From Pedosphaera sp. (GTDB taxonomy: Bacteria > Verrucomicrobiota > Verrucomicrobiia > Limisphaerales > SIBH01), in assembly GCA_031414955.1 (NCBI GenBank), contig JANOQV010000242.1:35459-99458 (forward strand): a stretch of 64,000 nucleotides of DNA, in the 5' to 3' direction. Shown piece after piece: positions 46,630-57,417 of the stretch. Position 1 is the stretch's first letter, and the number at the start of each line of letters is the position of its first letter. Position numbers and translations under genes: made by a program. Below the pieces are notes generated by a model. The model was not told where the DNA came from and did not search any database. It worked only from the letters and a program-made list of their open reading frames with translations.

Positions 46630-46941
46630 ATGGACATCACCAAAAACATCACGGGAGAAGTGCATGAATTGCTTGTCTCCGGCCGCATCGACGGCGCGGG
46701 CGCCAACCAACTGGAAATGGAAATTCTCGCCACCATGCGGACCAACGCCCAGACGATTTACGTCAACCTCACTCTGGCTACTTTTCTTTGTTCCGCCGGC
46801 CTGCGGGTGTTGCTCCAATACTGGCGGCAGATGAAGGGCGCGGGAAAGAACCTCCAGGTGTCCAATCCCTCCACCGAGGTGGACGCGGTGCTGGCCATGA
46901 CCGGCTTCCGCGAACAGATCGTCGAGGGCGCGCGCTCTTAG
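46630..46941 (+). CDS. STAS domain anti-sigma-factor antagonist
   Basis: VSGRIDG..FLCSAGLRVLL..VLAMTGF. Confidence 0.88.
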   Translation: MDITKNITGEVHELLVSGRIDGAGANQLEMEILATMRTNAQTIYVNLTLATFLCSAGLRVLLQYWRQMKGAGKNLQVSNPSTEVDAVLAMTGFREQIVEGARS

Positions 46942-46976
46942 TCGCCGGCCTCGGATGCCCCGACCGGACGCCCTGT

Positions 46977-47393
46977 ATGAACCTCACCTCCGAACACCGC
47001 CTCCGCGCGCAGTTGGCGGAGACGAGGCTGGTGGAGGGTTGGCTGCGTGACTTTGCCAGCCGGACGGCCTGGCCGGAGGCGGTCAGGAACGCCTTCGACC
47101 TGGCTCTCGAGGAGTGGCTCACCAATATCATATCCCACGCCTTCACGGATCAGCGCGAGCATTTCATCGTGGTCCGTTTGAACATGACGCCAGGGGAGGC
47201 GCGGGTCGAAGTGGAGGATGACGGCCGTGAATTCAACCCGCTCACGCATCCGCCGGTGGACACGGGCGTGCCCTTGGAGCAGCGCAGCGTCGGGGGCTTG
47301 GGCCTGCACATGATCAAGAAGCTCATGGACGTGGTGGAGTACCGGCGCACGGAAGGGCGAAACATCCTTACGCTGCGCAAGCGCGTGGGCTGA
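46977..47393 (+). CDS. Anti-sigma factor / Ser kinase (RsbW-like, HATPase_c_2)
   Basis: LALEEWLTNIISHA, EDDGREFNP and GGLGLHMI. Confidence 0.88.
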   Translation: MNLTSEHRLRAQLAETRLVEGWLRDFASRTAWPEAVRNAFDLALEEWLTNIISHAFTDQREHFIVVRLNMTPGEARVEVEDDGREFNPLTHPPVDTGVPLEQRSVGGLGLHMIKKLMDVVEYRRTEGRNILTLRKRVG

Positions 47394-47437
47394 CCGCCAG
47401 GGCAGGGGGCCGTCCCCGGCTTTGGGCTTCGAACTGT

Positions 47438-47755
47438 TCAGGCCCGGAGGGCCAGCCGCGCGGCTTCGATTGACTCGAACTTGGGCGCGATTTCCTCCAG
47501 GCCGCAGAGGCGCAGCACCTCGCGCACGGGCGGCCGGCACCCGAGCAGAGCCAGCTTGCCGCGGCGTGCCTCCACCGCTTTCTGCGCCATGAGCAGCGAG
47601 CGCACGCCGGCGCTGCTCAGGTAATCCAAGGCGACCAGATCGAGGATCAGCCGGGTGGCCCCGGCCTCGATCAAATTCGTGAGCAGCAGGCCAAACTCAC
47701 CGGAGTTGACTCCATCCAGCCGCGCGGGCGCGTCCACCAAGACAGTCGTTTGCAT
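47438..47755 (-). CDS. STAS domain anti-sigma-factor antagonist
   Basis: RLD..LILDL..LDYLSSAGVRSLL..VREVLRLCGL. Confidence 0.88.
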   Translation of the reverse strand: MQTTVLVDAPARLDGVNSGEFGLLLTNLIEAGATRLILDLVALDYLSSAGVRSLLMAQKAVEARRGKLALLGCRPPVREVLRLCGLEEIAPKFESIEAARLALRA

Positions 47756-47770
47756 AAAAGGTAGCGGTCG

Positions 47771-48184
47771 TTACTTGAGGCGTTTGCTCAGCGTGACCAC
47801 GTTGTTCGCGCCCAGCCGCTGGTAATCCACACGGTCCACGAGGTGGCGGAGGAGGTGAATGCCCCGACCAACCTGGGCCGCCTCGCGCGTTGCCGCCGCC
47901 ATATCGAGCACTGGAAAATCACACGGGTTGAAGGGTTGACCGTCATCCCTGATTTCCAGCCGCAGTTCAGCGGGGCCGATTTTGCAGGTGACGCTGATGG
48001 GGTGGCTCGCGGTGTCGGCGTAGGCGTATTGGATGATGTTCTCGATCCATTCCCCGAGGGCGACGTTCAGGGCGGAGATGACGCCGAGTCGGACGCCGGA
48101 GGCTTGCAGGGTGGATTGCAACTGGTGCTGCACGTCTTCGAGCTGCGCCGGGTGGTTGCTCAGGCTGAACTGATATTCTTCCAT
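47771..48184 (-). CDS. Anti-sigma factor / Ser kinase (RsbW-like)
   Basis: VALGEWIENIIQYAY, RDDGQPFNP and GRGIHLL. Start taken at MEEYQF. Confidence 0.88.
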   Translation of the reverse strand: MEEYQFSLSNHPAQLEDVQHQLQSTLQASGVRLGVISALNVALGEWIENIIQYAYADTASHPISVTCKIGPAELRLEIRDDGQPFNPCDFPVLDMAAATREAAQVGRGIHLLRHLVDRVDYQRLGANNVVTLSKRLK

Positions 48185-48188
48185 GTGA

Positions 48189-49856
48189 TTAAGGGATGCT
48201 GATTTCCAGGATCGAAATGTCGTCTTCAAAGCCCGCACCGGCGCGAATCTGGGTGGCCCAGTGCAGGATGGCGTCCAGCTTGGAGCCGGCCTCGGGAAGC
48301 GCAAGCTCCGAGATGAATTCCGGCAACTGGACGGTGGTGCCGTCCGGGCGGGCCAGCTCATACACGCCATCACTGAAGACCAGGAGGCGACAGCCGGGCG
48401 GCAGGGATCGCTTCAGCGTCGGGTAGCTGGTCTCCATGAAGCCGACGATGGCTCCCGGCGCGCTCAAGGGTTGCGGCCCCGGCTCGACCGACGACACGAG
48501 CATGACGGGCGGATGCCCGCCGCAGGCGAAGGCCAGTTCGCGCCGGGCCGGCGCGTAAACGCCGTACCAGATGGTGAAGAACATGTTGTTCTGCTTCTCC
48601 ATGGTGAAGGTGCGGTTGAGCGCGGAGAGCACGGATCCCGGATCGTGGAAGTCCACGTTCGGAATGGAGCGGTTGTTCAACACGTTCATCACGGACACCG
48701 AGAGCAGGGCTGCACCGACGCCGTGGCCGCACACATCGAGCAGGTAGAAGGCGAAATGTTCCTCGTCCAGCCAGTGATAACTGAAGGCGTCCCCGCCGAG
48801 CTGTTCGCTGGGCAGGAACCGCCAGTCCGTGCGCACCGGGCCATCCGCGAGCGGCGCGGGCAGCAGCGAGCGGACGTACTGCGCGGCCTCGGCCAGTTGA
48901 TCGGAGAGAGCCTTCTGACTGCGCTGCAAAGCCGCGAAGGCTTCCCGCTCACGCGTGCGAAGCTGGTTCTTCTCCAGGCAGGCGTGAATGCGCGCGCGCA
49001 GCAGGATCGGATCAAACGGCTTGGACAGATAATCCTCCGCGCCCATCTCGATGCACCGCACCACCCGCGCGGTCTCGTCGGAGGCGGAGAGGACGATGAC
49101 CGGCACCTGGGCCAGGGCCGGGTCGGATTTCATGGTTTCGAGCACCTGGTAGCCGTTCATGCCCGGCATCTGGATGTCGAGCAACAGCAGGTCAAAGGTG
49201 CCGCAGCGCAACCGGGCCAGCGCCTCCTGGCCATCGCCGGCGAGTGTCACCTCGTGCCCGAGCCGGGTCAGACGGCGGAGCAGCATGGTACGATTGCCTT
49301 CGTCGTCATCCGTGACCAGCACCCGGCCCTTGGGCGTGGGCGGCCCGGCGACGGACGGTTCGGGGCGGTACCTTTGGAAGACGGTGGTGGCGCTATCCGC
49401 CGCCGAGGAGGCCGCGGCGGCGGCGCGGGCCTTGTGGGGACTGAAATGCTCGACCACGCGTCCCAGCAACTCACGGGCGGCGTGGTGAATGCGCTCCAGA
49501 TCGCCGATGAAACTCTCGTGCCCGCTGGTCCGCGCCTCCTCCTGCAACATTTCCGCGTAGCCGATGATCTGATTGAGCGGCGTGCGCACGTCGTGATCGA
49601 TCAGGCTGGGATTTGACAGATAGACCGGTGTCTTCTCCGGGTCGCAAATCTCGTTGATCACGCCGAGCAGGTTGCGCCCGGCATCGTGGATGCGCTTCAA
49701 GTCCGGCAGAAATTTCTCCCCGCCCGTGTCCTCCGCCTCCTCGGTCAGCATCTCGCAATAGCCGATGATGTGATTGAGCGGCGTGCGCAATTCATGCTTG
49801 AGGCTAGAGACGGCGGGGCGCGACCCCGGCGCGGATGTTGGATTCGGATCGCTCAT
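48189..49856 (-). CDS. HisKA-HisKA-REC-PP2C (SpoIIE/RsbU-type) phosphatase
   Basis: [13 protein letters not shown] and HDVRTPLNQIIGY; receiver VTDDD..LLDIQMP..KP; PP2C motifs GGD, DVCGHG, FSDGVYE and DDIS. Confidence 0.9.
   Translation of the reverse strand: MSDPNPTSAPGSRPAVSSLKHELRTPLNHIIGYCEMLTEEAEDTGGEKFLPDLKRIHDAGRNLLGVINEICDPEKTPVYLSNPSLIDHDVRTPLNQIIGYAEMLQEEARTSGHESFIGDLERIHHAARELLGRVVEHFSPHKARAAAAASSAADSATTVFQRYRPEPSVAGPPTPKGRVLVTDDDEGNRTMLLRRLTRLGHEVTLAGDGQEALARLRCGTFDLLLLDIQMPGMNGYQVLETMKSDPALAQVPVIVLSASDETARVVRCIEMGAEDYLSKPFDPILLRARIHACLEKNQLRTREREAFAALQRSQKALSDQLAEAAQYVRSLLPAPLADGPVRTDWRFLPSEQLGGDAFSYHWLDEEHFAFYLLDVCGHGVGAALLSVSVMNVLNNRSIPNVDFHDPGSVLSALNRTFTMEKQNNMFFTIWYGVYAPARRELAFACGGHPPVMLVSSVEPGPQPLSAPGAIVGFMETSYPTLKRSLPPGCRLLVFSDGVYELARPDGTTVQLPEFISELALPEAGSKLDAILHWATQIRAGAGFEDDISILEISIP

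Positions 49857-50466: not shown

Positions 50467-50468
<2 letters not shown>
50245..50468. repeat. Nested intergenic palindromic elements
   Basis: Outer inverted repeat AACCACGAATGGACAC ... GTGTCCATGCGTGGTT. Inner units GGCCTGAAAGGCC, AGCCCAGGG..CCTGGG, GCCCTGAAAGGGC and GCCCCTTCAGGGC. Confidence 0.8.
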
Positions 50469-52830
<2,362 letters not shown>

Positions 52831-52832
52831 GG

Positions 52833-53396
52833 CTAGCGGGTCACCTTGGCGATCCGGAGGAGCTTGGAATTAATTTCCAGCCCGGCCCGCTTGGCGTTCT
52901 TGAGGTTGATCTCCAGTTTCTGCTGGCTGACCAGCAGGTTGAAGACGCCGCCGCTCTTGGTGAAAGTTTCACTCTCGCCCACCGTGAGCAGGCCGAAGGT
53001 GTTCGCGTCCTTGGTCAGTAACTGCCATTGCGGCTCTTGTTCCGCAGGGATGAAAAGCAGATGGCAGCGACGCAGTGCATTGGTGTCGGCGGGGAAAGTT
53101 TGTACGACCACGTCGCGCCCACCCACTTTCTGCCCCTTGAGCAGGGCTGTGAGCATCGGCTCGAGGGAGTTGGTGCCGAAGATGCCGACCACGAAATTCG
53201 TGTCCGAATCGGCCAGCACCGCCTTGGGCCACTGGACGTAGGGGGAGACCTTGGCCAGGGTGATGGCCTTGAATTCTTCGGGATTCAGGATGGCTTCCGC
53301 GCTCCAAACGCGCGCCAGTCCGGCGGCCAGCGCCAAGGCCGGCAGCCACCGGCGCCAGGCTGTCCACGTTTCGCGCGCTGAAGCCGGGTCAATCAT
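52833..53396 (-). CDS. YfiR family (DUF4154) periplasmic protein
   Basis: Signal peptide, E.KA..L...[37 protein letters not shown]. Confidence 0.9.
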
Positions 53397-53473: not shown

Positions 53474-54709
53474 TCAACGCGGTTGCTGTTCCGTCGTCGC
53501 TGGCCGGCCCGTCGTCGTGGCCACGAGTTCGCGCAAATCCCGCAGCCGTTGTGGCACGAGGAAGGTGGCTTCGCCGCCATAGCTCCGCTGAATCAGTTCG
53601 TGCAAAAACAACGCGCTCAATTTCTCGTGCAGCTTCTTCAGCGGCTTCAGCTTGTCCGCCTCCTTCCAGAATACGCGCAGCAACCACGGAATCAGGTGCA
53701 GCAGAAAGCGCGGGAAGAATCTCACCGGCTTCTGGCCGAGGGCCGTCATCGCCTCCGGGCCGATGAGGTCCTCCATGTAAAGTCGGGCCAGGTGGGACAG
53801 GCCGAGATGTTTCAGGAAAGTGTCCGGCAGGAGCGACGTCACCATCGCCAGCAGATGCGTGGCGAGTTCCACCCCGGCGGGATTCTCGGCGGCGGGTTTG
53901 TAATGCCGCCGCGCATAGGCCCGGTAGAACTCGCGCGCCTCCGCCAGCGTCTGCGGCACGAACGACGTGTCCGCCGGCCGGCCCGGCGGGTGAATGCCCA
54001 TGAGCAGCGCGAAGTTCGTCCACACGTAGTAATAGTCCGCCGCCTCCTGCTCGGTGAGCCCGGCCTCCAGTTCCTGCACACCTTCCACCACCAGCAGCGA
54101 GAAACCCATGATGGTGCCGAGCATGTCCTCCAGATTCACCGGCTCGCCGAAGCGCGCCCGGTAATCGGGGATTTTTCGAACCACGATCTGCCTGATGCCG
54201 GCGTGCAGCAGGCGCAGCTTGTTCGCCGTGACGATGGCTTCGCCCTTCGGCTCGAAGCCGCCGATGGAGCAGACGTTCACCACCATCTGCAAGACGCCGA
54301 GCAGCCGCACGTAGGTGTGATCATCGAGGTCGCGGGTCCGGTGCAGGATCGTGGTGAGACACGGTGCCTGGTAGCCCTCGGGCACGCTCTTGAGCAGCAG
54401 GGCCACGCAGGATTGGAAACAATTCTCGAGGAAAACTTTCTGTCCGGCGCGAAGGCGCTTCAGGTCAGCCGGCTTCCCGTCCGGATCGGGCAACCGGTGG
54501 AATTTCTGGAAAAAATCATCCGCCACCTGCGGCAGGCCAACCGGCATCTTCGCGTCGTTGGTTGTGAGCTGATGGAACTGCGCGCGGAAATCATCTTCTC
54601 CGCTGACCCGGTGCAGCTCGCGCAGGCAAAGGTCGGCGTCCGGATCGCCGAGCGCGCGCAGTTGATTCAGGAAACTGTCATCCGACCATTTCGTGCTCAC
54701 GGTTTTCAT
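53474..54709 (-). CDS. MpaB / rubber-oxygenase (Lcp)-like heme oxygenase (DUF2236 family)
   Basis: LRALGDPDAD, KLRLLHAGIR (heme-ligand His), PVNLEDMLGT..GFS and DYYYVW...ALLMGI. Confidence 0.82.
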   Translation of the reverse strand: MKTVSTKWSDDSFLNQLRALGDPDADLCLRELHRVSGEDDFRAQFHQLTTNDAKMPVGLPQVADDFFQKFHRLPDPDGKPADLKRLRAGQKVFLENCFQSCVALLLKSVPEGYQAPCLTTILHRTRDLDDHTYVRLLGVLQMVVNVCSIGGFEPKGEAIVTANKLRLLHAGIRQIVVRKIPDYRARFGEPVNLEDMLGTIMGFSLLVVEGVQELEAGLTEQEAADYYYVWTNFALLMGIHPPGRPADTSFVPQTLAEAREFYRAYARRHYKPAAENPAGVELATHLLAMVTSLLPDTFLKHLGLSHLARLYMEDLIGPEAMTALGQKPVRFFPRFLLHLIPWLLRVFWKEADKLKPLKKLHEKLSALFLHELIQRSYGGEATFLVPQRLRDLRELVATTTGRPATTEQQPR

Positions 54710-54723
54710 TCTCGCGGAGCTGA

Positions 54724-57417
54724 TCAAAAGCGGCAGGTCAGTTGGCCGTAAATCGCGCGGTCCACCCCGATGGCGCTCGTCTGGTAGAAGAGCGGATCGT
54801 TCGATTCCTTGTGGCCCTCTTCGAGGAGATTTCTGCCCACCAGCGCCAGCTCCCAGTGCTTGCTGAACCGCCAGGCGATCCGCGCGCCGAGGTCGAAGTA
54901 ATCATGCACCTGGATCGGACTGCGTTCATCGACCCAGCGCACCGTCACGTCGAAATCAACATCCCGGTGCGGGTTCCACGAGGTGCGCAACGAGACCTGG
55001 TTCTGCGGGTTCATGTCCGTCTCGTTCACGCTGAACGGATCTTCAGCTTCAAAAATCGTGTACGTGTAAGCCAGCGTGAGACGCACGTCCTGGAGCACCT
55101 GCCAGGAGCTGGCCAACTCCGCGCCGTAGCTCTGCGCCGTGGCAGTGTTGACCGCCACCACCGGGATACGGACGTGGGGAAAGGGCGCGGCGTGAAACGT
55201 CGCCTTGCTCGTCTGGACACTGCCGGTGATGAGGTCGGTGTAGTCATTGTAAAAGCCGGCGAGATCAAACGACAGCCGGTCGCTGGCCAGCCAGCGATGG
55301 CCCGCCTCGTAAGCCAGCACTTTCTCCGGTTTTGAGTCCGGGCTGCCGGTGCCGTAGAAAAACGCCGGGAGCGGCGAGCCGGGAGAATAGAACGGCCCGG
55401 CCAGCGGCGAATTGCGCGTGTCGAGCTGCTCGCGGTCGGCGATGACCGCCGCGCGCGACACGGACGCCCAAGTCGTGTGGTGCTCGTTCACCAGCCAACT
55501 GAGCCGCGCGTTCGGCAGGATCTCCCAGCCCGTTAGGTTGTAATGCTCGAAGCGCGACCCCAGCACCAGCTTCAGCCGCTCGGGCCAGAGCGTGATTTCA
55601 TCCTGGAGGAACAGCGTGAGCAGGTGGAGGTGTCTCGTCTCGGGCGTAAAATAGACGCGCGGATCGCCCCGTTGCTCCACCGTGCTCGGGAAGTAGCGGT
55701 AGCCGATGCCGTACTGCACGTCCTGGCGGAGCGGCAGCGGGAACCGGTGCCGCACCTCCACGTCGTACTTGTCCTCGACCAGATTGTCGCTGATGTCCCC
55801 GCGCCGGTCGGTGTGGTCGTAAAACATCTGCGCGTTCAACTCCGAGCCTTCCCCCAGCGGCTTGCGCCAGGCCAGCATCGCGTGCGCGGCCAGCGCATCG
55901 AACTCATCCTTCACGAAATCCGTGTGCGCATTGGTGGCCAGGCTTGGATAAAACCGCTCGACGCCCATGCGTCCCTGATAATAGCCGGCGTCGAAGGTCA
56001 GGAAATTCTTTCCCTTCAATTCCCAGTCGCCCCGCACTCCGGCGCTCCAGGAACTCCAGCCGTTCCCAATCGCATCCTTCTGATCCACGCTGGCTCCCTT
56101 GACGAAGCCGCGCAGCGCGCCGTCCTTCCCGGCCGCCATGCCGTAGCGCACCTCCGCGAAGCCCTGATACAACTCGCCGCCGCCGATGCTGGCGTAGGTG
56201 CCCTTGGTCGCGTGGGCGTCCTTGGTGATGATGTTGACCACGCCCGCCGCCGCATTCGCGCCCCAGGTCGCACCGCCCGGCCCGCGAATGACCTCGATGC
56301 GATCGATGTCTTCATAGAGATAATCCACCGAATCCCAGTACACGCCGCCCATCGACGGGCTGAAAACGGTCCGGCCATCCACCAGCACCTGCAACCCGCG
56401 CTCGAAGCGCCGCTTGCCCAGCCCGCGCGCGTTCACGATCCAGGTGTGCTCGTCCACCTGGGCCACAAACATGCCCGGCACCATGCGCAGCAGATCGGGA
56501 ACGCTCCGCGCGCCGGAGCGCTGGATGTCCTCCGAGTTGATCACGAACACCGCGCTGGGCGATTCGAAGACCGTGCCGGACTTGCGCAGCACCGAAGTGA
56601 CCTCCGTGTTCAACACGTCCTCGATGGAAAGCTGGCGCAGTTGCTCGATGCGATTGGTGTTGGTGTCCGCCTGCTGCGCCTGGATCGCGCCGGCCGTGCC
56701 CAGCCACAACACCGCGGCCGCGGCGGCCCCAGCCCGGAGGCCGCCGACCGCGCCGGAGGTCGAACCAGCCGCCCGCTTGCGCAGGAACACGGCGATGAAG
56801 ATCGCGTCCAGCACCGTCGAGGTCGCACACATCACCATGAGGCAGTTGTGCTGCCCGTCCCAATAATGCATGACCATGAAGAGCGTCACCAACCCGGTGC
56901 CGATCACCCGCAGCCACATGGCCGGGGCGGAGAACCGTTGGGTGTCCTCCGACTTCAGCAGCAGGAGCAGATAAAACACCGAGATGAGAAGCTGCGCGAT
57001 GTAGGCCGAGTTCGCTCCGATGGGCGAGTCGTGTCCCTCGCGGGTGAAGAAAAAGTAGAAGGCCAGCCAGAACAGCAACGAGCCGATGAACACGGGACGA
57101 TAATGCTTCCGCAGCCGCGCGTCGCTGATCTGCCAGTCCGCGTACTTCCAGATGCCGACGATGATCACCAGGTCGAAGACGAGCCAGGCGCGGTAGCCCC
57201 ACTGGACCAGCGGCCCCATGTCCGGGACAAACACGCCGCTCCACAGGAACTCCCAGGCCAGATTGCTCACCGCCGCGAAGAACGGCATCTCCGCGCTTTG
57301 TTTCTTGAACATGTCACGGACAAAAATGCCGTACACCACCACCCACAGAAAACAGCCGGTCAGGAAGACGGCCAATTCAAGGTGGGTGTACTTTTCGAAG
57401 TTCAGCAATTTATCCAT
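54724..57417 (-). CDS. Fusion protein: N-terminal membrane-type terpene cyclase (Pyr4/PaxB/XiaE-like) and C-terminal TonB-dependent receptor
   Basis: Residues ~1-215 have about 7 TMs with W...Y, MP......NLAWEF and a late LD motif. Residues ~248-897 have a plug (EVTSV, DIDRIEVIRGPG..WGANA..GVVNIITK) and a beta-barrel ending in F. Confidence 0.82.
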   Translation of the reverse strand: MDKLLNFEKYTHLELAVFLTGCFLWVVVYGIFVRDMFKKQSAEMPFFAAVSNLAWEFLWSGVFVPDMGPLVQWGYRAWLVFDLVIIVGIWKYADWQISDARLRKHYRPVFIGSLLFWLAFYFFFTREGHDSPIGANSAYIAQLLISVFYLLLLLKSEDTQRFSAPAMWLRVIGTGLVTLFMVMHYWDGQHNCLMVMCATSTVLDAIFIAVFLRKRAAGSTSGAVGGLRAGAAAAAVLWLGTAGAIQAQQADTNTNRIEQLRQLSIEDVLNTEVTSVLRKSGTVFESPSAVFVINSEDIQRSGARSVPDLLRMVPGMFVAQVDEHTWIVNARGLGKRRFERGLQVLVDGRTVFSPSMGGVYWDSVDYLYEDIDRIEVIRGPGGATWGANAAAGVVNIITKDAHATKGTYASIGGGELYQGFAEVRYGMAAGKDGALRGFVKGASVDQKDAIGNGWSSWSAGVRGDWELKGKNFLTFDAGYYQGRMGVERFYPSLATNAHTDFVKDEFDALAAHAMLAWRKPLGEGSELNAQMFYDHTDRRGDISDNLVEDKYDVEVRHRFPLPLRQDVQYGIGYRYFPSTVEQRGDPRVYFTPETRHLHLLTLFLQDEITLWPERLKLVLGSRFEHYNLTGWEILPNARLSWLVNEHHTTWASVSRAAVIADREQLDTRNSPLAGPFYSPGSPLPAFFYGTGSPDSKPEKVLAYEAGHRWLASDRLSFDLAGFYNDYTDLITGSVQTSKATFHAAPFPHVRIPVVAVNTATAQSYGAELASSWQVLQDVRLTLAYTYTIFEAEDPFSVNETDMNPQNQVSLRTSWNPHRDVDFDVTVRWVDERSPIQVHDYFDLGARIAWRFSKHWELALVGRNLLEEGHKESNDPLFYQTSAIGVDRAIYGQLTCRF

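Follow-up and report, generated by a model that had tools for sequence, protein, structure and literature searches.

A gene joining a Pyr4-like membrane domain to a TonB-dependent receptor through a putative internal signal peptide

Outer-membrane barrel proteins are thought to be made as separate precursors, each with an N-terminal signal peptide, and polyproteins that are split at an internal signal peptide are known from FbcH, the cytochrome b-c1 polyprotein of Bradyrhizobium japonicum. The Pyr4-like cyclases (PF25129), which have seven transmembrane helices as a family trait and include fungal Pyr4 and PaxB as well as bacterial XiaH, TylF, GroF and ZigF, cyclise prenyl chains by acid catalysis, and relatives of MpaB and Lcp cleave isoprenoid double bonds. 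According to the main text of a 2026 survey of bacterial Pyr4-like cyclases (Journal of the American Chemical Society), 264 of 1107 sequences were kept, namely those with terpenoid genes nearby, and 69% of those kept were from Actinomycetota; the term ‘TonB’ does not occur in that main text. Terpene-cyclase genome mining has so far filtered out sequences such as the one described here, a gene on a stretch of 64,000 nucleotides from Pedosphaera sp. (assembly GCA_031414955.1, contig JANOQV010000242.1; hereafter the window). In a single chain it encodes a Pyr4-like seven-transmembrane domain, a 35-residue signal-peptide-like linker and a complete TonB-dependent receptor, in that order. An earlier note on this DNA, made from the sequence alone, had proposed an inner-membrane terpene cyclase fused to an outer-membrane receptor and separated from it by cleavage at the linker.

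The single stop-free frame of 897 codons that the note had read is present, on the minus strand and with an ATG start (Table 1), and the residues and coordinates given for it are all correct: the Glu of NLAWEF is E56, the Asp of STVLD is D204, the linker that runs from RKRAAG to AGAIQA and on to QQ occupies residues 213-249, and the codon of Q248 begins at nucleotide 56676. Pfam places Pyr4-TMTC (PF25129) at residues 6-208, followed by Plug and TonB_dep_Rec_b-barrel domains. A homologue search with residues 1-300 as query, covering proteins of 493-1570 amino acids (aa) with 8000 candidates scored, returned five proteins: the window's own (P0001), three fused clusters (P0002, P0003 and P0004, with 897, 899 and 900 aa) and one ordinary receptor matching only at the Plug end. 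The three clusters are 72, 70 and 67% identical to P0001 and have the same three Pfam domains, so the closest homologues are fused, where the note had allowed that all of them might be split genes. Divided by region, identity to P0001 ranges over 69-75% for the cyclase half and 73-83% for the receptor half, against 33-51% for the linker; by these figures both halves are conserved and the linker is freer to vary.

The note had also asked whether an assembly error might lie around the linker. In the likely source run (X1) the whole stretch lies within one contig, and contigs of three runs from a study other than that of X1 (X3, X4 and X5) cover 56585-57210, with no insertion or deletion in 56585-56950. 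One of them (X3 record 3, 56632-57210) bridges the linker with 30 differences and no gap, and the others (X4 record 9, 56632-56944; X5 records 15 and 16, 56585-56878) likewise show substitutions and no gaps; none of these independent contigs has a frameshift there. Given clusters that keep the same frame and gapless contigs from another study, an assembly error or a fresh pseudogene is very unlikely: the gene is a real, conserved fusion. The only indels seen were a +1/-1 pair 6 nt apart (56962/56968), inside the cyclase domain in one low-depth X5 contig, which is either a compensated frameshift altering two codons or an assembly error.

The match of the N-terminal half to PF25129 scores 77.4 bits against a cut-off of 27 (E 1.7e-21) and spans profile positions 6-211 of 227, which agrees with the Pyr4/PaxB assignment in the earlier note. 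The two acids that the note had put forward as Pyr4-type residues, candidate equivalents of the Pyr4 pair, are conserved among the 69 sequences aligned (E56 and D204; Table 1), and two more stand out there, D82 being invariant in 69/69 and D130 kept in at least 90%. We take the catalytic residues of Pyr4 to be E63 and D218, numbers that were not found in PMC11109268. For the window protein, ‘terpene cyclase’ is used as a family label only, and cyclase activity is putative. An AlphaFold2 (AF2) model of residues 1-262, built on the 69 sequences with a mean predicted local distance difference test score (pLDDT) of 89.9, contains seven transmembrane helices (12-39, 46-61, 69-92, 106-126, 135-155, 164-184 and 191-222), then a low-confidence break at 223-230 and a separate helix at 231-261 (pLDDT ~53-57). 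Stand-alone cyclase relatives, of 224-248 aa, have a short basic tail directly after the seventh helix. Counting Lys and Arg in loops and flanks gives 10 on the predicted cytoplasmic side, including the C-terminal tail, versus 3 on the periplasmic side, so that by the positive-inside rule the domain would lie with its N-terminus out and its C-terminus in. From a cytoplasmic end, the next hydrophobic segment could insert like a signal peptide with its c-region exposed to signal peptidase I in the periplasm, and the modelled topology is thus compatible with a signal-peptide function of the linker.

The best structural matches of the seven-helix model (window 56632-57417) are to the KDEL receptor (Z 14.2, root-mean-square deviation 3.9, 182 residues aligned), SWEET (Z 11.2 and 10.2) and cystinosin (Z 9.6 and 9.5), followed by unrelated helical proteins. 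The fold may be distantly related to the PQ-loop/SWEET type or may just share its helix arrangement. Foldseek against the Protein Data Bank gave nothing at E <= 0.001 for this model, and no Pyr4-like entry is among the matches listed.

For the other half, the outer-membrane TonB receptor named in the note is borne out by Pfam, NCBIfam, AF2 and Foldseek. Residues 259-897 align to positions 1-604 of 604 of the TOL_0244-family receptor model (NF053590) with 455.3 bits, below the cut-off of 645, so by profile score this half is a relative of that family and not a member. Modelled alone it reaches a pLDDT of 90.2 and a predicted template modelling score of 0.91, and Foldseek matches the model to Cir, PirA, FepA and BtuB at E ~1e-38 with TM-scores of 0.72-0.88. 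With AlphaFold and Foldseek applied to both halves, as the note had proposed, one is thus modelled as a seven-helix membrane domain and the other as a TonB-dependent transporter. The chain ends in QLTCRF, with a terminal Phe. Judged by profiles and fold match, the C-terminal half is a complete Plug-plus-barrel receptor. Near its predicted N-terminus the segment LSIEDVLNTEVTSVLRK aligns with the LSLEELL..VTSVSKK motif of receptor homologues, and the VTSV-type motif is presumably the TonB box. With the receptor half as query, phmmer retrieved 44,856 relatives (E <= 0.001). The best 150 representatives include 146 stand-alone receptors (628-718 aa), and two of the other four, P0003 and P0035, are cyclase fusions. 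Two long receptor hits, P0098 (875 aa) and P0094 (755 aa), were rejected as further fusions, their N-terminal extensions being low-complexity and without a PF25129 match.

Between the halves lies a segment with the three regions of a Sec signal peptide (Table 1). Its best 15-residue Kyte-Doolittle mean is 1.77 and its uncharged stretch is 22 residues long. The layout of basic, hydrophobic and small residues that the note had described here recurs in all six fused proteins compared (P0001-P0004, P0035 and an open reading frame at locus L111): in each, 2-6 Lys or Arg fall within the 20 residues ahead of the core, a run of 19-24 residues carries no charge, and positions -3 and -1 are taken by small residues (with a slash for the predicted cut, IQA/Q, ATA/Q, AMA/Q, AAA/E or similar, ANA/A and VGA/D). 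In P0035 the linker reads MREGAALLGLALLLCATSAANA followed after the cut by AE, a full signal peptide with its Met included. Most of 70 N-termini of receptor homologues have an ordinary signal peptide just ahead of the LSLEELL..VTSV motif (a few look truncated), and several alignments to these homologues begin at homologue residues 3-5 and so reach into the linker. The linker thus sits where the receptor would have a signal peptide of its own and, on this sequence evidence, appears to be the retained signal peptide of a TonB-dependent receptor. A cut after A244 (AGA/I) is a possible alternative to the one predicted. The residue after the predicted cut (window 56674-56676) is Gln in three of the four proteins of the window's clade (P0001-P0004, clade 1), and a paper (PMC5837995) reportedly deals with a Gln/pyroglutamate rule for signal peptidase I substrates in Bacteroidetes. 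The linker of the L111 protein terminates in TTTCVGA/D. Two further internal codons, V236 (GTG) and L237 (TTG), were rejected as starts, which would leave no n-region and a truncated h-region.

The product of the fusion gene probably must be split in two, and our favoured reading, to which we give a probability of roughly 0.6, is a polyprotein predicted to be cut by signal peptidase I near A247/Q248. The seven-helix part would insert co-translationally with a periplasmic N-terminus and a cytoplasmic C-terminus, and the basic RKR...R segment would remain on the cytoplasmic side. The Ala-rich residues 229-243 would then insert as an eighth helix, N-in and C-out, and start translocation of the receptor. 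Signal peptidase I would cut after AIQA (A247/Q248) or a few residues earlier, releasing a receptor of ~650 aa to fold into the outer membrane via the barrel assembly machinery (BAM) and leaving an inner-membrane remainder of 247 aa that keeps the signal peptide as its C-terminal helix. A profile search of the genome found four loci for signal peptidase I that score above the cut-off, and a single Omp85/BamA. The fusion may ensure that the two partners are expressed and targeted together, and its purpose may be a 1:1 stoichiometry.

Several points weigh against this reading. The cleavage site was placed by the -3/-1 rule and by collinearity with homologues. The core is Ala-rich and moderately hydrophobic (Kyte-Doolittle 1.77) and follows the seventh helix by 16 residues, so it could form a hairpin and be a poor peptidase substrate. 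Met is present in two of the six linkers (P0003 and P0035), which makes internal initiation possible in some lineages. No RNA run is listed as containing the stretch, and a metagenome scan for DNA of the fused homologues P0002-P0004 gave only one unrelated Plug match. In the receptor tree described next, the apparent sister rows P0021 and P0029 are without a signal peptide and may be truncated calls; this and the quick search behind that tree weaken what it can say for two fusions.

Such fusions, which the note had suggested looking for elsewhere, extend beyond the three clusters to a divergent second clade. It comprises the 917-aa open reading frame in L111 (genome G397), which was among 14 genomes with a match in a PF25129 search over 400 other genomes of the same order, and its relative P0035 (921 aa), each with its own signal-peptide-like linker. 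Compared with the window protein, the L111 protein is ~28% identical in the cyclase part and ~36% in the receptor part. A cyclase tree of 33 rows, made by careful search, places clade 1 within the stand-alone cyclases as sister to the 226-aa P0006 (support 99/98) and clade 2 outside that group. In a receptor tree of 44 rows, made by quick search and leaving out the split receptor of L107, clade 1 goes with P0021/P0022 and clade 2 with P0029/P0050, with non-fused rows between them. Because the clades lie apart in both trees, two independent fusions are favoured as the most economical reading of these sequences.

Elsewhere in the order the two partners are usually neighbours. Of the 14 other genomes with a PF25129 match, 12 have the cyclase gene directly beside a receptor that is 35-41% identical over its full length; G179 and G145, the latter with a weak and partial match where a contig ends, do not. 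Among the 12 loci, five have the receptor and then the cyclase on one strand, six are convergent and one is fused; at L108 the cyclase position was taken from the PF25129 genome search. YfiR-like and kinase genes accompany the pair in four loci (L102, L103, L104 and L106), and large MpaB-like proteins occur in L101, L102, L105 and L111. Directly after the pair at one locus (L084:8751-12361, genome G050) come two genes whose products, of 615 and 588 aa, share a short RoxA-like cytochrome c motif (PF21419, 39 positions). RoxA is the other known type of rubber oxygenase, and this second oxygenase family may replace the MpaB/Lcp-like oxygenase there. At L107:266-2397 (G280) the receptor beside the cyclase is split between two open reading frames, 434 and 283 aa long, that are out of frame with each other; this is either a pseudogene with a frameshift or an error of sequencing. 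A distant Pyr4-like gene at L099:7956-9491 (G263, contig 32), on a long branch of the cyclase tree, sits beside a UbiA prenyltransferase with no receptor nearby and is a classical meroterpenoid-type pairing.

The closest stand-alone cyclases outside the order, 35-53% identical, come from Bacteroidota, Fibrobacterota, Acidobacteriota, Ignavibacteriota, Chromobacteriales and others. Of 80 loci from many phyla (L003-L082), 57 have an MpaB-like gene no more than 1 kb from the cyclase, upstream on the same strand in 52; among the other 23, several are short contigs. In 15 loci chosen by hand to represent different taxa, Pfam scans of the neighbouring genes show a kinase-type signalling gene beside the MpaB-cyclase pair in all except L032. 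At these 14 loci the types are Ser/Thr kinase-AAA_16-GAF-SpoIIE giants, 7TMR-DISM or plain histidine kinases, and nucleotide cyclases. The set of MpaB-like, Pyr4-like and kinase genes looks like an undescribed input module for signal transduction. Tandem duplicates of Pyr4-like genes stand beside one MpaB-like gene in Acidobacteriota and Bacteroidota (L011:5327-6618, L036:3051-4362 and L051:711-2002). In the acidobacterial locus L011 the genes are separate and the receptor is of the CarboxypepD_reg type.

In the window, six genes follow one another on one strand: a 2102-aa sensor kinase, the fusion, an MpaB/Lcp-like oxygenase, a YfiR-like protein, a hybrid histidine kinase and a response-regulator/SpoIIE phosphatase (Table 1). 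The TTG start of the oxygenase gene overlaps the fusion stop by 4 nt (an alternative ATG is at 54709), and the start of the hybrid kinase overlaps the stop of the YfiR-like gene by the same length. The fusion gene is the only NF053590 match in the genome, so the receptor that goes with the YfiR-like and kinase cassette must come from the fusion. Among the window genes scanned (33.7-64 kb) no prenyltransferase, terpene synthase or epoxidase-type terpenoid cluster gene was found, and the surrounding genes suggest signalling and isoprenoid oxidation rather than a meroterpenoid pathway of the classical kind. A complex prediction for the seven-helix domain and the MpaB-like protein scored 0.00 and gave no verdict, which is evidence neither way. 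The response-regulator/SpoIIE phosphatase is a likely output of the kinases. An RsbW-like HATPase_c_2 kinase gene lies beside it on the other strand (46788-49856 for both), and the SpoIIE and RsbW-like pair downstream of the cassette suggests a partner-switching output. The 2102-aa kinase carries PA14, three Laminin_G_3, CarboxypepD_reg-like and Reg_prop repeats before HisKA/HATPase_c; Reg_prop/Y_Y_Y kinases also occur near the MpaB-cyclase pair in Algoriphagus (L064) and Saccharicrinis (L067).

Table 1. Coordinates of the fusion gene, its parts and neighbouring genes in the window, and of the second fused gene and its neighbours at locus L111
Feature	Position	Strand	Details
Fusion gene (P0001)	54724..57417	minus	ATG start, 897 codons and stop, one stop-free frame; open reading frame listing and translation
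Pyr4-like seven-transmembrane domain, residues 1-212	56782..57417	minus	PF25129 match and AF2 model
E56	57250-57252	minus	Invariant in 69/69 sequences
D204	56806-56808	minus	Kept in at least 90% of 69 sequences
In-frame GTG (V210)	56788..56790	minus	Proposed alternative start; inside the seventh transmembrane helix
Linker n-region, residues 213-228	56734..56781	minus	RKRAAGSTSGAVGGLR; 4 Lys/Arg, zero acidic residues
Linker h-region, residues 229-243	56689..56733	minus	AGAAAAAVLWLGTAG; hydrophobic core
Linker c-region, residues 244-247	56677..56688	minus	AIQA; predicted signal peptidase I site A247/Q248
Predicted mature TonB-dependent receptor, residues 248-897	54727..56676	minus	Pfam, NF053590, AF2, Foldseek
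TonB-box-like EVTSVLRK	56581-56604	minus	Aligns with homologue motif
Plug	56239-56568	minus	PF07715, residues 284-393, E 8.5e-20
Barrel	54826-56076	minus	PF00593, residues 448-864, E 6e-36
MpaB/Lcp-like oxygenase, 417 aa	53474..54727	minus	PF09995, E 9.4e-13
YfiR-like periplasmic protein (DUF4154)	52833..53396	minus	PF13689, E 1.7e-30; NF053591, 100.9 bits, below cut-off 125
Hybrid histidine kinase	50467..52830	minus	N-terminal part: NF053592 (histidine kinase, ‘YfiR-like protein-associated’), 169.7 bits, below cut-off 194
Sensor histidine kinase, 2102 aa	57680..63988	minus	PA14, Laminin_G_3, Reg_prop, HisKA, HATPase_c; 262 nt upstream of the fusion
Response-regulator/SpoIIE (PP2C) phosphatase with HisKA segment	48189..49856	minus	Domain scan
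Second fused gene, 917 aa	L111:5842-8595	minus	PF25129 at 53 bits, linker, receptor
Protein preceding the L111 fusion, 795 aa	L111:8625-11012	minus	MpaB-like domain, C-terminal hydrophobic segments
FAD amine-oxidase-type gene after the L111 fusion	L111:3371-5092	minus	Follows the fused gene

Other explanations concern either what the first half does or how the second half is made. It is possible, if doubtful, that the seven-helix half is no terpene cyclase and serves as an inner-membrane permease or lipid sensor for what the receptor imports, an idea compatible with cleavage. The 12 of 14 genomes in which the cyclase gene adjoins this type of receptor fit it, as do the kinases beside the gene in 14 of the 15 hand-picked loci of other phyla, the best structural matches to seven-helix carriers and receptors (KDEL receptor, SWEET, cystinosin), and the window genes scanned, with their lack of a prenyltransferase or terpene synthase. 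A shared fold proves no function, however, and Z scores below ~13 are common for helical bundles, whereas the PF25129 match is well above threshold. The intramembrane acids, with E56 (in the WEF motif) and D82 invariant and D130 and D204 at or above 90%, fit acid catalysis, and the usual partner in 57 of 80 loci is an MpaB/Lcp-like oxygenase, of an enzyme family that attacks isoprenoid double bonds.

It is unlikely that the receptor is made mainly from an internal start, with the linker acting as an N-terminal signal peptide and the read-through fusion as a by-product. The GTG at 56790, which the earlier note had offered as such a start, is indeed in frame as V210 and would give a signal peptide of 38 residues, but it is not conserved across clade 1, where the position reads V, V, Q and L in P0001-P0004. 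Elsewhere the linker Met of P0003 and P0035 could serve, but P0002, P0004 and the L111 protein have none. The ATG at 57417 is also without a Shine-Dalgarno sequence, so the lack of one upstream of the GTG says nothing. None of the six fused proteins has a stop between the halves; ribosomes from codon 1 therefore still make the fusion, whose product still needs handling, and stop-codon loss became fixed in each of two clades.

Much less probable is an uncleaved signal-anchor, an eighth transmembrane helix tethering a receptor that would be periplasmic, mis-localised or placed at membrane contact sites. The 19-24 uncharged residues would suffice for such a helix and AF2 draws residues 231-261 (pLDDT ~53-57) as continuous, but just ~15 residues separate the predicted site from the LSIEDVL motif of the receptor in clade 1, too short to span the periplasm by general envelope dimensions. 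A conserved full Plug and barrel ending in Phe accords with assembly into the outer membrane, a process that requires a free intermediate in the periplasm, and all 6/6 linkers retain small residues at -3 and -1 despite sequence drift.

That the fusion is a non-functional accident, from assembly error or a recent stop-codon loss toward a pseudogene, is barely credible and already largely refuted: the family is sporadic, with PF25129 found in none of 11 other genomes of the genus and in one of 400 other genomes of the phylum, but four clusters with identities down to 67% keep the entire frame, both halves are better conserved than the linker, strain variants from another study show substitutions and no junction indels, a second clade is fused too, and the gene is the genome's only match to the receptor model paired with the YfiR-like/kinase cassette.

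Returning to the polyprotein cut by signal peptidase I, we can ask what its two products would do. The module formed by the TOL_0244-related receptor, the Pyr4-like domain, the MpaB/Lcp-like and YfiR-like proteins and the kinases probably senses or processes an isoprenoid-type lipid. From the chemistry of the MpaB/Lcp and Pyr4 families and the conserved acids, the most coherent guess, by analogy, is an isoprenoid lipid that would be imported, oxidised, cyclised and sensed by the kinases. Tentatively, all of this may combine into one picture, a two-membrane polyprotein from which signal peptidase I would yield a lipid-modifying inner-membrane protein, with the eighth helix kept, and an outer-membrane receptor. 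In that picture the receptor would be exported co-translationally because of the transmembrane helices upstream of it, and the fusion would have arisen on two occasions because its two halves act together in a system that is widespread and undescribed. There the MpaB/Lcp-like oxygenase and the Pyr4-like protein would convert an isoprenoid, either imported or from the membrane, into a signal for YfiR-like/histidine kinase, Ser/Thr-kinase and SpoIIE-type modules.

As a ‘Rosetta stone’, the fusion ties a TonB-dependent receptor to a membrane protein of the Pyr4-like kind; taken with the adjacency of the two across the order and with their partners, it suggests an uncharacterised module for the uptake or signalling of a lipid, probably an isoprenoid. 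Its presence in two clades is a natural test of internal signal-peptide cleavage after seven transmembrane helices, and of whether a barrel protein tolerates co-translational targeting of the signal recognition particle (SRP) type. In the literature searched, no paper described a TonB-dependent receptor joined to either an inner-membrane protein or a terpene cyclase, and we found nothing pairing DUF4154 with TonB-dependent receptors and nothing linking MpaB/DUF2236 to kinases. Internal-signal-peptide polyproteins and both domain families are known, and what appears new, by the literature searched, is an inner-membrane and an outer-membrane protein in one chain.

The window protein resembles the Pyr4-like cyclases in its HMM match, its seven modelled transmembrane helices and its conserved intramembrane Glu and Asp, and differs from them by its fusion to an outer-membrane receptor. 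Characterised members sit in terpenoid clusters, whereas the neighbours here are an MpaB-like oxygenase, a YfiR-like protein and kinases. The TOL_0244-type cassette (NF053590, NF053591 and NF053592) gives the best or near-best matches to the window proteins, whose genes likewise share one strand and follow the order of the cassette, but all three score under the equivalog cut-offs (455 vs 645, 101 vs 125 and 170 vs 194). The window receptor also carries an N-terminal seven-helix domain, and its gene is separated from the YfiR-like one by an inserted MpaB-like gene. For the processing mechanism the closest known precedent, by analogy, would be FbcH, which likewise consists of a polytopic inner-membrane protein, an internal signal sequence and a second exported protein in a chain that is processed into two subunits. 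Processing is experimental for FbcH and predicted for the window protein. The products of FbcH share one inner-membrane complex, whereas the second product of the window gene would be an outer-membrane beta-barrel.

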